Assembly: GCF_963967315.1 (NCBI RefSeq) | Contig: NZ_OZ017288.1 | Location: 600,001 to 632,000, forward strand | Length of the DNA stretch: 32,000 nt | Reading direction: 5' to 3' | From: Candidatus Minimicrobia sp. QA0096 | GTDB taxonomy: Bacteria; Patescibacteriota; Saccharimonadia; Saccharimonadales; Saccharimonadaceae | Part shown: one piece after another, positions 19,972 through 23,753 of the stretch | How positions within the stretch are numbered: position 1 is the first letter of the stretch | How the letters are laid out: each line of letters begins with the position of its first letter | Translations under genes and position numbers: made by a program | Notes under the pieces: generated by a model | Told to the model about the DNA's origin: nothing | The model's input: the letters and a program-made list of their open reading frames with translations, nothing else | The model's database searches: none

Positions 19972-20349
19972 GTGAGTATGGGGATGAAGATAACTAGTTT
20001 TATAGCGTTGGTTGCATTGATTTTGACTGCGGTTATTTTGAACGCGACAAACCCGAGTTCTGCTGGTCCGTTTGGGATTTTAGTGTTTTTTGTATGTTTG
20101 TATATACTATTTATCTGTCTAACTTATGTAGTATTTTTAACATCGGAGCGAATAGCTGCGAAATTTTTTAATTTCAAGAATAGTCGCAATGAATCTAAGT
20201 ATAAGACTTATTATTATTCTACCGTAATCTCTCTTGCTCCAGTTATTTATGTGGGTATGCAATCGATGGGAGATGTTGGGATTTTTGAGATATTATTACT
20301 TGGTGTGTTTGAGTTGCTGGCGTGTTTTTTTATACATAAAAGATACTAA
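19972..20349 (+). CDS. Small integral membrane protein (about 120 aa), unknown function
   Basis: It has three to four hydrophobic helices. The start is ambiguous between GTG 19972, ATG 19978 and ATG 19984. TATAGT boxes lie at 19933-19938 and 19961-19966 upstream. Confidence 0.55.
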   Translation: MSMGMKITSFIALVALILTAVILNATNPSSAGPFGILVFFVCLYILFICLTYVVFLTSERIAAKFFNFKNSRNESKYKTYYYSTVISLAPVIYVGMQSMGDVGIFEILLLGVFELLACFFIHKRY

Positions 20350-20403
20350 TTCCGTCCTGAACGTAGTCGTGTATTTTAAGTAGTTACGTGGTACAATATA
20401 TTT

Positions 20404-20844
20404 ATGAATCCCGAACTGCCACAAGTTAATAGGACTCCTGAGGTGCAGCCACAAAATATAGGTGGCGGTGAGTATAATGTAGAAAATACATCATTAAATC
20501 CTGAGATCGGAAGAGAGTCCGAGCAGTCACTTGGTGTTAGGGTTGAACAATATAACAATATCCCTGTGGCTTTGCCTGTTGATAATACTACAACAGCTCC
20601 TTTATCTCAAAACGACGCTCAAAGTACGAAGCAGTCGGGGGTAGTAGCTGATGACGATACTCCTCTGGTGGCAGCGGATGAAGATCTGATAGAAAGAGAA
20701 TGGGTGGATAAAGTTAAAAAGATTATAGCTTTAACAAAAGATAATCCTTATGAGAGGAATAGAGTTATTGCACAGCTGCAGGCTGATTATTTAAAAAAAC
20801 GATATAATAAGACTTTAGGTCAAAATGACGATGGTAGTAAGTAG
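20404..20844 (+). CDS. Hypothetical protein, disordered acidic/polar N-terminal two-thirds plus a helical C-terminal about 45 aa
   Basis: TGgTACAAT (20389-20397) lies 6 nt upstream of the ATG. There is no signal peptide or TM segment. The C-terminus is EREWVDKVKKIIALTKDNPYERNRVIAQLQADYLKKRYN. Confidence 0.55.
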   Translation: MNPELPQVNRTPEVQPQNIGGGEYNVENTSLNPEIGRESEQSLGVRVEQYNNIPVALPVDNTTTAPLSQNDAQSTKQSGVVADDDTPLVAADEDLIEREWVDKVKKIIALTKDNPYERNRVIAQLQADYLKKRYNKTLGQNDDGSK

Positions 20845-20852
20845 GGTTTTAT

Positions 20853-23753
20853 ATGGGTGCGGGTCCTTTGATAGTTAGTTTTATCGCGATTGTTATTATA
20901 GCCGCTGGTTCTGCGGTAGCTTTTGTGTTGTATCGTAACATGCTGAGGGAAGCCAAAAATTATGAACGAGGCTTGAAGATGGTGCCGTTGCTTATACATT
21001 TGCCTCCGACAAGTGAAGACGTCAATAATTCAAATCGAGATGAGCGAGATTTAACTGAAGAGGTGCTGTCGCAAGCCCAGGTGATGTACAATATTATCTC
21101 AAGTACAGCAACTAAAGGATTCAAAAGTAAAGTCTACGGCCAACGTCATATATCGTTTGAGATTGTTGCACATGGTGGGTTAGTTCACTATTATGCTGTT
21201 GTTCCGCTAGTGTTAGTTGATGTTATTCGTCAAGCTGTAGCGGCGGCATATCCTTCTGCTAGGCTAGAAGAGGTATCTGATATTAATATATTCAGCAAGG
21301 TCGGCAAGATGAGCGGAACCATCGGCGGCGAATTCACCCTGAAAAAATCCTTTGTTTATCCAATATCGACTTATCAGGAGTCGAAAAGAGATGCTTCCAG
21401 GGCATTATTAAATGCTTTATCTTCGGCGTCCAGAGAAGATGGAATAGGTGTACAATTTTTACTACGTCCGGCGTATGACGGTTGGTCCAAGGCTTCAGAG
21501 TCTCATATTGACGGCATGAAGAAAAATAAGGGCAAGAAGAAAGGCTTTGGAGGCGTTGCTCCTATGGATATTATGGAGGCTCTGTGGAAACCGCCAGAGA
21601 ATAATGAAAAAGACGGTGGCTCTAGTTCTGAGGACAAGCAGCTAACATCTTTAGAGCAGGCGGAAGTGGATGCTATCAGTGAAAAAGCTCGCTATCCTGC
21701 ATATGAAGTCTTAGTGCGTGTTGTAATTTCGTCAAACACTGCGGCGCGCTCTCAAGTGTTGTTAAAAAATATAATAGCAGCCTTCTCGTTGTTTGACTCA
21801 CCTCGCAATAATGGGTTTAAGTTCTCTTTAACTAGGAATGTTGAGGAAATGACAACATCATATATTATGAGGTTTTTCCCTCAGGAAACTCGTAGTAATA
21901 TTCTCAACAGTGTAGAAATGGCAACGTTATTCCATTTGCCTGGAGCTAACGCGATCCCGACTTCACAAGTTAAGCGACAGATGTCCAAGCAGGTTGATGG
22001 ACCAACAGACGTTTTGGATGAGGGTTTGCTGATTGGGTATAACGAATTTCGAGGAGTCAAAAAACCTATTAGAATCGGAACAAAAGACCGCCGCCGCCAT
22101 GTATATATTATTGGTCAAACAGGCGTTGGTAAATCTGTCTTGCAGGAAAATATGGCTTATCAGGATATGATGGATGGTCGGGGATTTGCCTTTATTGATC
22201 CGCACGGTGATTTGGTTGAATCTTTATTGGGTAAGGTTCCAAAAGAACGCGTTGAGGATATTATCTACTTTAATCCTGCCGATATGACTAATCCAATTGG
22301 GTTGAATATGTTTGAGTTCGACACTCCAGACCAAAAAGACTTTTTGGTTCAAGAGGCAATTAATATGCTGTATGGTCTTTACGATCCAGGCCATACGGGA
22401 ATTGTTGGCCCTCGTTTGGAACATATTTTTAGAAACTGCGCCTTGCTGCTGATGTCAGATCCTGCTGGTGGAACGTTTATTGATGTGCCGAAGTGTCTTA
22501 TTGATCCTGAATTTGTAAAAAACAAGCTTAAGTATGTAAAAGATCAGCAAGTTATTGATTTCTGGACAAAGGAATTTCCTGCGTCGCAGAGGTCAAATGA
22601 GGCAGGTGAGGTTATTTCATGGGTTGTATCAAAGTTTGGTCCATTTATTTCCAACGATGCAATGCGCAATATCATTGGTCAGACCAAATCTGGATTTAAT
22701 TTGCGTGAAATTATGGATAATAATAAGATTTTGCTGGTTAATTTGTCGAAAGGTAAGATGGGTGAACTTAATTCGAAGCTTCTGGGTATTATTTTTGTGA
22801 TGAAGTTCCAGGCAGCAGCGATGTCTCGGGCGGATATTCCAGAAGATCAGCGAGTTGATTTCTCATTGTATGTTGACGAGTTTCAGAACTTCGCTACTGA
22901 CAGCTTTGAATCTATTTTGTCTGAGGCTCGTAAGTATAAATTGAGTCTTATTATGGGTAACCAGTTTATGACGCAGTTAACAGATAAGATACGAGAAGCT
23001 ATTATTGGTAACGTCGGTACGGTTATTTCTGGGCGTATCGGTGTAACTGATGCCGAATTGATGGTTAAGAAGTTCCAGCCGACCTTCGATGTCGACGACT
23101 TGGCTAAATTGCCAAACTTCCAATCTATAACCTCTGTGATGATTAATAATGTGCCGTCTGCGCCGTTTAGCATGAATTGGATTCCTCCGATGGGGCAAGT
23201 TAATAATCAGCTGAGAGACGCGTTAGTAAGGCTATCTGCTGCTAAATATGGTAGACCGCGAGCTGTTGTCGAGAAGGAGATATTTGACAGGATTAGAGGT
23301 AGTGTGCAACCAAAGACGAGTCCTTCTCAATTAGCGCCTTCTGCTAATCAAAAGGCATCTGGTGGGTCGTCGTTCTTGGATGAATGGCTAGCGAAGAGAC
23401 AACAATTAGGAGGAAAGCCCGCTTCTAACTCAACTGTAAGACCGGTAAATTCGCAAGCCCCACAGACTTCCTCGCAAATACAGAATCCGCAAGGTCGCCC
23501 AGGGGTGGTTAATAATGCGCCTTCTAATATAAATAGCGTAAATGCTACAGCTTCTAATCTTGACAGCAAACAGCAAAGTCAACCTTCTGCGATAGATAGT
23601 GCTGTCGTCAATAGGACAAATGTGTCCATGACTACAAATAATAACCCTGTCTCTTCTGTAAATGTAAAACCGAACCAACCTGTGGTTAAGAATAGGCTCG
23701 ATTTACGTAATGGTGATGATGACGATAGTGAAGTGATGATTAGTTTGAGATAA
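20853..23753 (+). CDS. Membrane-anchored VirD4/TraG/TraD- or HerA/FtsK-like P-loop NTPase (coupling-protein-like) with a long disordered C-terminal tail
   Basis: An N-terminal TM segment (LIVSFIAIVIIAAGSAVAFVLY), Walker A YIIGQTGVGKSVL, Walker B FSLYVDEFQNF and downstream SLIMGNQF. The last about 170 aa are Q/N/S/P-rich low complexity. Confidence 0.7.
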   Translation: MGAGPLIVSFIAIVIIAAGSAVAFVLYRNMLREAKNYERGLKMVPLLIHLPPTSEDVNNSNRDERDLTEEVLSQAQVMYNIISSTATKGFKSKVYGQRHISFEIVAHGGLVHYYAVVPLVLVDVIRQAVAAAYPSARLEEVSDINIFSKVGKMSGTIGGEFTLKKSFVYPISTYQESKRDASRALLNALSSASREDGIGVQFLLRPAYDGWSKASESHIDGMKKNKGKKKGFGGVAPMDIMEALWKPPENNEKDGGSSSEDKQLTSLEQAEVDAISEKARYPAYEVLVRVVISSNTAARSQVLLKNIIAAFSLFDSPRNNGFKFSLTRNVEEMTTSYIMRFFPQETRSNILNSVEMATLFHLPGANAIPTSQVKRQMSKQVDGPTDVLDEGLLIGYNEFRGVKKPIRIGTKDRRRHVYIIGQTGVGKSVLQENMAYQDMMDGRGFAFIDPHGDLVESLLGKVPKERVEDIIYFNPADMTNPIGLNMFEFDTPDQKDFLVQEAINMLYGLYDPGHTGIVGPRLEHIFRNCALLLMSDPAGGTFIDVPKCLIDPEFVKNKLKYVKDQQVIDFWTKEFPASQRSNEAGEVISWVVSKFGPFISNDAMRNIIGQTKSGFNLREIMDNNKILLVNLSKGKMGELNSKLLGIIFVMKFQAAAMSRADIPEDQRVDFSLYVDEFQNFATDSFESILSEARKYKLSLIMGNQFMTQLTDKIREAIIGNVGTVISGRIGVTDAELMVKKFQPTFDVDDLAKLPNFQSITSVMINNVPSAPFSMNWIPPMGQVNNQLRDALVRLSAAKYGRPRAVVEKEIFDRIRGSVQPKTSPSQLAPSANQKASGGSSFLDEWLAKRQQLGGKPASNSTVRPVNSQAPQTSSQIQNPQGRPGVVNNAPSNINSVNATASNLDSKQQSQPSAIDSAVVNRTNVSMTTNNNPVSSVNVKPNQPVVKNRLDLRNGDDDDSEVMISLR

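Follow-up and report, generated by a model that had tools for sequence, protein, structure and literature searches.

Introduction

Type IV coupling proteins (T4CPs) select the cargo of type IV secretion systems (T4SSs), and the described members, among them TrwB of R388, TraD, VirD4, DotL and Cag-beta, combine an amino-terminal membrane anchor with a P-loop domain that carries a helical insertion between the Walker A and Walker B motifs. VirB4 proteins, such as TrwK of R388, consist of an amino-terminal alpha/beta domain followed by a RecA-like ATPase. Here we describe a three-gene module at positions 19972-23753 of a 32,000-nucleotide stretch of the Candidatus Minimicrobia sp. QA0096 genome (contig NZ_OZ017288.1, positions 600,001 to 632,000 of the forward strand; this whole stretch is referred to below as the window), a member of the Saccharimonadia within the Patescibacteria. 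The module encodes a small polytopic membrane protein (p1), a 146-aa protein (p2) and a 966-aa membrane-anchored ATPase that very probably belongs to the T4CP family and that unites a VirB4-type amino-terminal domain with a T4CP-type motor. We favor the reading in which this ATPase serves the Patescibacteria T4SS as its substrate receptor and motor, and we hold that reading about as strongly as we doubt it.

The T4SSs of Patescibacteria are derived from the monoderm FATA class (PMC12102498). In TM7x and other Saccharibacteria a T4SS with VirB4, VirB6 and a VirB2 array is encoded elsewhere in the genome (PMC7427843, PMC10633639), and the cargo of the essential Saccharibacteria T4SS has been described as completely unknown (PMC11665869). 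T4CP homologs were reported in 2,918 of 3,035 Patescibacteria genomes (96%) versus 2,417 of 3,035 (80%) for VirB4, and they lie far from virB4, with only 148 of 5,713 found near it (PMC12102498). No coupling protein was recognized in the T4SS cluster of Southlakia epibionticum (PMC10633639), and Quiñonero-Coronel et al. 2025 considered the Southlakia t4cp homolog to be non-essential and perhaps exapted (PMC12102498); the Southlakia and TM7x loci are not listed in the supplements of that paper. A preliminary description of the window, made from its sequence, had presented the module as a coupling-protein-like ATPase without the rest of a T4SS, and had named a complete conjugative system elsewhere that uses the gene as its ordinary coupling protein as the finding that would speak against it. 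The first statement is correct for the window and incorrect genome-wide, at least for TM7x and other Saccharibacteria (PMC7427843, PMC10633639), and the T4SS that the literature places elsewhere is a non-conjugative one.

The ATPase and its family

The three co-directional genes reported in the preliminary description were all recovered as open reading frames (ORFs), and the features of the module are as follows.

19972-20349 (GTG start, 125 aa) or 19978-20349 (ATG start, 123 aa), + strand: p1, ORF for a small polytopic membrane protein
20404-20844, + strand: p2, ORF of 146 aa
20853-23753, + strand: ORF of 966 aa for the membrane-anchored ATPase, very probably of the coupling-protein family
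20862-20975, + strand: amino-terminal helix of the ATPase (aa 4-41), from the sequence and the AlphaFold2 model
20979-22052, + strand: DUF8128 domain of the ATPase (aa ~43-400), from the precomputed PF26449 annotation and a domain model
22053-23297, + strand: P-loop nucleotide-binding domain of the ATPase (aa ~401-815), from motifs, profiles and the TrwB alignment
22113-22136, + strand: Walker A of the ATPase, GQTGVGKS (aa 421-428)
22326-22718, + strand: helical insertion of the ATPase (aa 492-622) in the model, resembling the all-alpha domain of coupling proteins
22866-22880, + strand: Walker B of the ATPase, LYVDE (aa 672-676)
23298-23750, + strand: low-complexity tail of the ATPase (aa 816-966), Saccharimonadia-specific
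23694-23750, + strand: C-terminal motif RLDLRNGDDDDSEVMISLR of the ATPase (aa 948-966), kept in homologs

We assign the 966-aa protein to the T4CP family with high confidence. Its P-loop domain carries intact Walker A and Walker B motifs, Pfam TraG-D_C matched it at 26.1 bits against a cut-off of 22 with weaker matches to DUF87 and TrwB_AAD_bind, and its top Protein Data Bank (PDB) match by sequence was TrwB (E 3.7e-9 with the family profile); NCBIfam returned sub-threshold matches only, to TraD, CD1115-type VirD4 and CedD. An exhaustive search placed the protein in a family of 5,427 clusters (50% identity, E <= 1e-30) that align over aa ~10-815, far above chance. Pfam scans, which the preliminary description had suggested, were dominated by T4CP families when run over 22 diverse members: TrwB_AAD_bind and TraG-D_C each matched 21 of the 22, DUF87 matched 20/22 and T4SS-DNA_transf 9/22 (best E 3e-12). 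By comparison, the VirB4 family CagE_TrbE_VirB matched 0/22, and no VirB4-type family was matched at gathering level, the sole match of that type being P-loop_TraG in 1/22. FtsK_SpoIIIE matched 3/22, at E ~1e-3 only, and a complete FtsK is a separate gene (SEML1_0096) in Southlakia, so that the core does not cluster with the FtsK/SpoIIIE proteins. Those proteins have a 4-transmembrane (4TM) part, an alpha/beta motor and a gamma KOPS-binding domain, and the gamma domain was not found in the ATPase by profile scans.

Walker A (GQTGVGKS) and Walker B (LYVDE) are invariant across 22-53 diverse homologs. Invariance extends to residues G421, G424, K427, D675, E676, E691, R693, K694, Q704 and Q708, which include a SEARKY motif and two glutamines that do not vary in the family, and judged by these positions the catalytic site is intact.

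Two other assignments were weighed at this stage. The archaeal Ced system, to which the module had been compared at first, shares with it, as do HerA and FtsK, a common ATPase superfamily and small membrane proteins encoded nearby. This analogy gained no specific support, since the CedD match was 25.3 bits against a cut-off of 600 and was limited to the Walker A region (aa 402-477), p1 matched neither CedA nor VirB3 nor TcpE, and the module differs in having no CedA-like proteins, NurA or FtsK gamma domain. A defense ATPase of the MADS (mad8) or HerA type was rejected; the PADLOC mad8 match (E 1.5e-13) covers the generic ATPase core only. Neither p1 nor p2 nor the convergent downstream gene p4 had a significant PADLOC match, and the ATPase gene is core and essential in Southlakia.

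An AlphaFold2 model covering aa 1-830 (mean pLDDT 87.4) consists of a helix at aa 4-41, an alpha/beta domain at aa ~43-400 and a RecA-like P-loop domain with an all-helical insertion (aa 492-622) between Walker A and Walker B, which agrees with the single amino-terminal transmembrane (TM) helix and VirD4/TraG-like core proposed from sequence. The hydrophobic first part of the helix is the membrane anchor, and it is followed by R/K residues, so that by the positive-inside rule the remainder of the ATPase should be cytoplasmic. Classical coupling proteins have a two-helix anchor directly before the ATPase domain, whereas here one helix is followed by an extra VirB4-like domain of 350 aa.

When the whole model was compared with the PDB by Foldseek, TrwK/VirB4 ranked first over the full length (E 1.6e-14), followed by TrwB and then by HerA, DotL and Cag-beta. 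The TrwB alignment spanned the entire TrwB chain with both of its domains (~440 columns; target-normalized TM-score 0.59-0.63), and, judged from this global alignment, the inserted all-alpha domain would be equivalent to the insertion of TrwB. The amino-terminal domain of about 380 aa, called uncharacterized in the preliminary description, already had a name in Pfam as DUF8128 (PF26449, by precomputed annotation), and we found no literature on DUF8128 and no recent work on this ATPase. Modeled by itself (mean pLDDT 87.2), the domain gave 14 best PDB matches that were all TrwK/VirB4 (E 3.4e-6 to 1.1e-3), with the next ones at a probability <0.5. The modeled DUF8128 domain therefore has a fold like that of the VirB4 amino-terminal domain. 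The resemblance to VirB4 thus lies in the order of an alpha/beta domain and a RecA-like ATPase and in the fold of the first of these; by sequence the protein matches no VirB4 family, its core is nearer to T4CPs, and Saccharibacteria T4SS clusters contain a separate VirB4.

The tail (aa ~816-966) is rich in S, N, Q, V and P and ends in NGDDDDSEVMISLR; outside the Saccharimonadia it is absent or different. In Saccharimonadia homologs (P0271-P0369) a terminal motif is kept behind low-complexity linkers of highly variable length, either as LHLRG-acidic-E[IV]S[IV]KLR at the C-terminus or as GE[IV][FY][IV]DxxGN[LV]. From this pattern the motif looks like a docking peptide, and a long C-terminal tail with a terminal motif is likewise present in TraD and DotL.

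Relatives on plasmids and phages

Homologs of ~886-913 aa, uncharacterized and annotated as 'DUF87 domain-containing protein', are carried by Tcp-type conjugative plasmids of Bacillus (among them NZ_CP032854.1 and NZ_OX419568.1), and comparison with the ATPase family by hhalign gave a probability of 100% and E 1.9e-51 over columns 73-764 (654 columns, ~24% identity). The likeness is full-length and includes the DUF8128-like amino-terminal domain, and the plasmid proteins also have an acidic disordered C-terminal tail. They differ in having no amino-terminal TM helix and in being plasmid-borne beside relaxase and Tcp genes, and no p1- or p2-like genes were seen upstream of them. On these plasmids the next genes after the homolog encode a Replic_Relax relaxase, TcpC, TcpE and a VirB4-like ATPase, and the homolog occupies the usual position of the coupling protein. 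The plasmid's own VirB4 reached a profile probability of 4% with the ATPase family, with no detectable sequence relation. The presence of plasmid homologs in the coupling-protein position fits the published FATA-type descent of the Patescibacteria T4SS.

Phages also carry members of the family. In Bacillus phage G, gp156 is a full-length homolog (Foldseek E 7.6e-44; tblastn E 2e-27) adjoining the 'VirB-like' gp155 (locus L084), and further homologs were seen in phages JL, CP-51, Shanette, SP-10 and 0105phi7-2. Two plasmid candidates were set aside: the closest plasmid match to the core, from Sulfitobacter (35% identity, E 7e-64), is a lone 395-aa ATPase core beside transposases and is uninformative, and the pLS20 coupling protein (786 aa, two TM helices) is of the classical type and falls outside this family.

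Essentiality in Southlakia epibionticum

Transposon insertion sequencing (Tn-seq) results for the syntenic locus of Southlakia epibionticum are contained in Table S1 of Wang et al. 2023 (PMC10633639), with calls at T0/T1/T2. Synteny and gene lengths are the grounds for treating this locus as orthologous to that of the window: the Southlakia order is IF-3, ComM, p1, p2, ATPase, p4, adhesin, gyrB and gyrA, as in the window. The calls (ES, essential; GD, growth defect; NE, non-essential) and insertion counts (PMC10633639) are listed below.

SEML1_0140, p1: NE/GD/GD; insertions 8 -> 8/7/5
SEML1_0141, p2: GD/ES/ES; insertions 9 -> 0/0/0
SEML1_0142, ATPase: ES/ES/ES; insertions 114 -> 11/11/9
SEML1_0143, p4: NE/NE/NE; insertions 14 -> 14/14/14
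SEML1_0144, adhesin: NE/NE/NE; insertions 58 -> 33/48/48
SEML1_0293, paralog of the ATPase: NE/NE/NE; insertions 82 -> 87/120/110

Only 61 genes were placed in essential class I, SEML1_0142 among them; it is a member of a core family enriched in Patescibacteria, and it is absent from the main text of that paper (PMC10633639). The T4SS genes SEML1_0006-0019, including VirB4 (SEML1_0008), were also mostly called essential (PMC10633639), and so is the separate complete FtsK (SEML1_0096), which has 4TM, alpha, beta and gamma parts.

The paralog SEML1_0293 has, by published annotation, a P-loop domain at aa 361-795 and TrwB_AAD_bind, TraG-D_C and DUF87 matches. The relationship, which is drawn from that annotation, consists of a similar length and layout and identical Pfam families, whereas the paralog is non-essential, adjoins CRISPR-Cas9 and does not stand behind p1 and p2. 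Most likely, the "non-essential t4cp" of the literature is this paralog and not the ortholog of the ATPase described here.

A conserved operon with two small partner genes

Gene neighborhoods were surveyed at 80 loci from species-representative genomes. The ATPase family is present in Saccharibacteria and in Berkel-, Magasanik-, Falkow-, Uhr-, Woese-, Peregrini-, Curtiss-, Staskawicz- and Portnoybacteria, and is chromosomal across the candidate phyla radiation (CPR). The scanned CPR neighbor genes are housekeeping genes (PheT, CysS, RNR, gyrB, ComM), except for a tandem paralog at one locus and some genes without a match, and no linkage to relaxase or T4SS genes was found in the window or among these scanned neighbors. 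Relative to the known T4CPs, then, the ATPase is chromosomal, essential and phylum-wide, and is encoded without a relaxase and apart from T4SS genes. Within the Saccharimonadia the order p1-p2-ATPase was kept in nearly all sufficiently long loci, usually followed by the convergent p4 and then by an adhesin-like gene or gyrB, and this bears out the earlier view of the module as a conserved unit. The closest proteins (97-99% identity) are from Candidatus Nanosynbacter sp. HMT-352, and the TM7x ortholog, TM7x_00595, is 88% identical and lies in an identical gene order.

The p2 gene is found directly 5′ of the ATPase gene in ~34/36 Saccharimonadia loci, an arrangement that resembles cagZ/cag-beta, where a small partner gene is also directly 5′ of the ATPase gene. 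The distance from the p2 stop to the ATPase start has a median of ~3 nt, with overlap in 11 of the 36 pairs, and these overlapping or near-touching ends suggest translational coupling. Only the C-terminal ~55 aa of p2 are conserved in the Saccharimonadia (DLIEKEWVxKxKxI...DPY...YLKKRY), the amino-terminal 90 aa being acidic (net charge -9) and little conserved, and p2 has no Pfam family. An extended -10-like element, TGGTACAAT, is located at 20389-20397 and ends 6 nt before the p2 start codon (20404). It may mark an internal promoter from which p2 and the ATPase would be transcribed with almost no leader, and such a promoter might account for the tolerance of p1 to insertions in Southlakia.

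For p1, the ATG at 19978 is probably the start rather than the GTG at 19972, because the resulting 123 aa equal the length of the homolog clusters. An alignment of 22 homologs displays four hydrophobic segments with a conserved Pro after the first, in keeping with the polytopic protein of about 120 aa described before, and 3-5 hydrophobic segments were counted among the homologs by a simple hydropathy scan. The gene lies 5′ of p2 in most Saccharimonadia loci (37 jackhmmer matches), and 29 of 33 measured p1-to-p2 gaps are 21-138 nt. It is fast-evolving and was found in Saccharimonadia only; no Pfam or NCBIfam family covers it, p1 and 21 homologs lacked any VirB3, TcpE, PrgI or Ced match, and the homolog search yielded close relatives only, all without annotation. 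The downstream neighbor p4 has a charged amino-terminal part and two C-terminal hydrophobic segments, is downstream and convergent in 25/27 loci where it was found, and is probably outside the machine.

In the other CPR classes the p2 position is taken by a different small protein, with a low-complexity amino-terminal part and a strongly conserved C-terminal segment, ...KGEETA...IPGVNKFFLEQEAKIK, in fuller form KGEETA...WLKxIPGVNKFFLEQEAKIKTDKI. This KGEETA family (loci L049, L051, L052, L057, L058, L060, L062, L068, L069, L070, L073, L076 and L081) has no Pfam family. Homology of p2 to it was rejected at a profile comparison probability of 0.3%, which leaves a resemblance of layout only. Other variants of the small upstream protein were seen at L055/L063/L077 and at L047/L054.

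One CPR metagenome-assembled genome (MAG; locus L059) has two DUF8128-T4CP members in tandem (1128-3587 and 3587-6163), the first stop overlapping the second start. The second member (858 aa, E 1e-152 to the family profile) has no amino-terminal membrane helix, and a mixed ring of the two paralogs is conceivable.

A structured RNA and the surroundings of the module

A non-coding stretch at 19650-19960, directly 5′ of p1, is conserved at the nucleotide level at 9 Saccharimonadia loci (nhmmer). Its invariant blocks are ATGCTCCGCC, AGTACC and GGAGCGGTCA, and TAATAGTTAT is a further conserved block. From eight sequences RNAalifold derived a structure of 44 pairs, 20 of them with compensatory changes, compared with 9.2 +/- 2.1 compensatory pairs in shuffled controls (0/500 reach 20) and 1-5 in slid controls. 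No Rfam family matched at gathering threshold or at E <= 1. The last helix ends ~20 nt before the p1 start, and the RNA may act on the operon as a leader or a riboswitch-like element, or else be a separate small RNA. It and the other features around the module are listed here.

15112-15453, + strand: class A RNase P RNA
18222-18624, + strand: tmRNA
19546-19574: good promoter-like site shortly 5′ of the structured RNA
19650-19960, + strand: structured RNA of ~300 nt directly 5′ of p1, from conservation and covariation
23768-24337, - strand: p4, convergent 189-aa protein, a conserved neighbor
24348-25952, - strand: adhesin-like protein with PKD, Y_Y_Y and DUF11/DUF7927 matches, a conserved neighbor
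31247-32000, + strand: 5′ part of the 16S rRNA

Between the tmRNA and the structured RNA, about 1 kb (18625-19640) is AT-rich and without an ORF of at least 100 aa. Besides the RNase P RNA, the tmRNA and the start of the 16S rRNA gene, the window contains chromosomal core genes, namely prepilin peptidase, pilins, an XerC-like recombinase, NDK, ThrRS, MiaA, IF-3 and ComM, as well as the adhesin-like protein and gyrB/gyrA. The scan took in most window ORFs of at least 100 aa, a few of which lacked any Pfam match, and among these no match to relaxase, VirB4, VirB6 or other T4SS families was found, as had been noted before. The GC content of the module (0.38-0.44) matches that of the remainder of the window.

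Discussion

We suggest that the ancestor of the ATPase was a coupling protein in a conjugation system of the monoderm Tcp/FATA type, and that its gene became fixed in the chromosomes of the Patescibacteria. By analogy with TrwB the ATPase would form a hexamer, anchored by one amino-terminal helix, with DUF8128 and the TrwB-like domain with its all-alpha insertion in the cytoplasm. In this capacity it would feed cargo, which may be protein and possibly DNA, to the essential VirB4/VirB6/VirB8 T4SS with VirB2-like pilins that is encoded elsewhere in Saccharibacteria genomes. The p2 protein, probably coupled to the ATPase in translation, may bind it as an adaptor or regulator, much as CagZ does with Cag-beta or TraM with TraD, p1 may be a small membrane partner, and the C-terminal peptide on its floppy linker could serve as a docking motif.

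Several observations weigh against such a role in the T4SS. The ATPase gene is not beside virB4 here or in most Patescibacteria, it comes without a relaxase, and its protein has one helix and a VirB4-like domain instead of the two-helix anchor of classical coupling proteins. T4CP homologs were found in more genomes than VirB4 (2,918 versus 2,417), a comparison that is confounded by MAG incompleteness and by which some lineages may keep the ATPase without a T4SS. In Southlakia, SEML1_0142 is class I essential, already at T0, while most T4SS genes are class II, and polarity on the ATPase gene could account for the essential call of p2. Finally, the presence of a T4SS in the source genome rests on the literature for TM7x and other Saccharibacteria. 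The distance from the T4SS cluster, the wider spread of T4CP homologs and the earlier essentiality hold our confidence in a T4SS-coupled ATPase to an even balance, and they lend an autonomous translocon a smaller but real share.

In that alternative, which we consider possible though clearly behind the T4SS reading, the ATPase would form a hexamer for which p1 supplies the membrane channel or anchor and p2 is an adaptor or a substrate, and would move protein or nucleic acid without the VirB4 T4SS to serve a core need of CPR bacteria. The conserved p1-p2-ATPase operon, encoded apart from the T4SS, would suit such a machine, as would the 96% of genomes with T4CP homologs against 80% with VirB4, an ortholog whose essentiality shows sooner than that of most T4SS genes, and the different small upstream protein of like layout in other CPR classes. 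However, p1 is small, fast-evolving and was detected in Saccharimonadia only, and its mutants are viable and slow-growing, which would be unexpected for the obligatory channel of an essential motor. The plasmid homologs work inside T4SS operons, and to our knowledge every coupling protein depends on a channel, VirB-type or other, for translocation. A bolder form of the same idea, to which we give slightly less credit again, is a CPR-universal, essential, T4SS-independent translocon of ATPase, p1 and p2 for host nucleic acid or protein, whose ATPase would be a living intermediate between VirB4 and T4CP and which would be controlled by the RNA leader in Saccharimonadia.

Coupling proteins and FtsK/HerA relatives are DNA pumps, and it is natural to ask if the ATPase draws in host or environmental DNA as a nucleotide source, either in the manner of Ced or through the T4SS. 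Saccharibacteria lack nucleotide synthesis and their ComEC competence is dispensable, from which the field has proposed the T4SS as a source of nucleotides (PMC11665869, PMC12857230). ComM is also nearby in conserved synteny, but it is non-essential in Southlakia and divergent, and the tmRNA lies between it and the operon. Given further that specific similarity to Ced is missing (CedD at 25 bits versus 600, and p1 without a CedA match), that profile scans found no DNA-binding domain such as FtsK gamma, and that sequence does not reveal which way transport runs, we regard DNA import as doubtful.

Marginally weaker still is the proposal of a second VirB4-like assembly ATPase, which would extract pilins and assemble a VirB2-like pilus or channel and would not be the substrate receptor. 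The best full-length Foldseek matches to TrwK/VirB4, the exclusive match of the amino-terminal domain to VirB4 and the essential array of VirB2-like pilins in Saccharibacteria would all accord with it. The core sequence, on the other hand, is T4CP-like, with no VirB4-type family at gathering level and P-loop_TraG in a single member of 22; the comparison with the plasmid VirB4 reached a probability of only 4%; a dedicated VirB4 (SEML1_0008) is already present in the T4SS cluster; and the plasmid homologs coexist with VirB4 and adjoin the relaxase.

An ATPase for chromosome segregation or division like FtsK, or what is left of a decaying integrated conjugative element, is very improbable in spite of a published domain assignment that puts the P-loop domain of the ortholog in FtsK (e2iutB2), the essentiality of the gene and the XerC-like recombinase gene in the window, as Southlakia encodes a complete essential FtsK elsewhere, no gamma domain was found in the ATPase by profile scans, the CPR neighbors are housekeeping genes, the GC content of the module is ordinary, and the invariance of all catalytic residues in thousands of homologs argues for neither a remnant nor a mobile element.

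Some of what is presented here was already known, namely the occurrence of T4CP homologs away from virB4, the NCBI protein names, Pfam DUF8128 and the raw Tn-seq table. In the literature that we searched we did not find the distinction between an essential ATPase and a dispensable paralog, the VirB4-like fold of DUF8128, the full-length plasmid and phage homologs with the plasmid ones in the coupling-protein position, the conserved p1-p2-ATPase operon, the terminal motif or the structured RNA before the operon. The one homolog discussed in the literature was dismissed as non-essential, and the locus described here provides a second conserved paralog, which follows two small partner genes and whose Southlakia counterpart falls in essential class I in the published Tn-seq data. 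The fusion of a VirB4-like amino-terminal domain to a T4CP motor, also present on Bacillus plasmids and in phage G, bears on the kinship of the T4SS ATPase families. Very few regulators are known in this organism, and the covarying RNA may represent a new regulatory element. Because coupling proteins select cargo, the ATPase is a concrete bait for the material that these parasites move to or from their hosts, and its essential operon offers a handle on the exchange of material between the tiny parasitic Saccharibacteria and those hosts.

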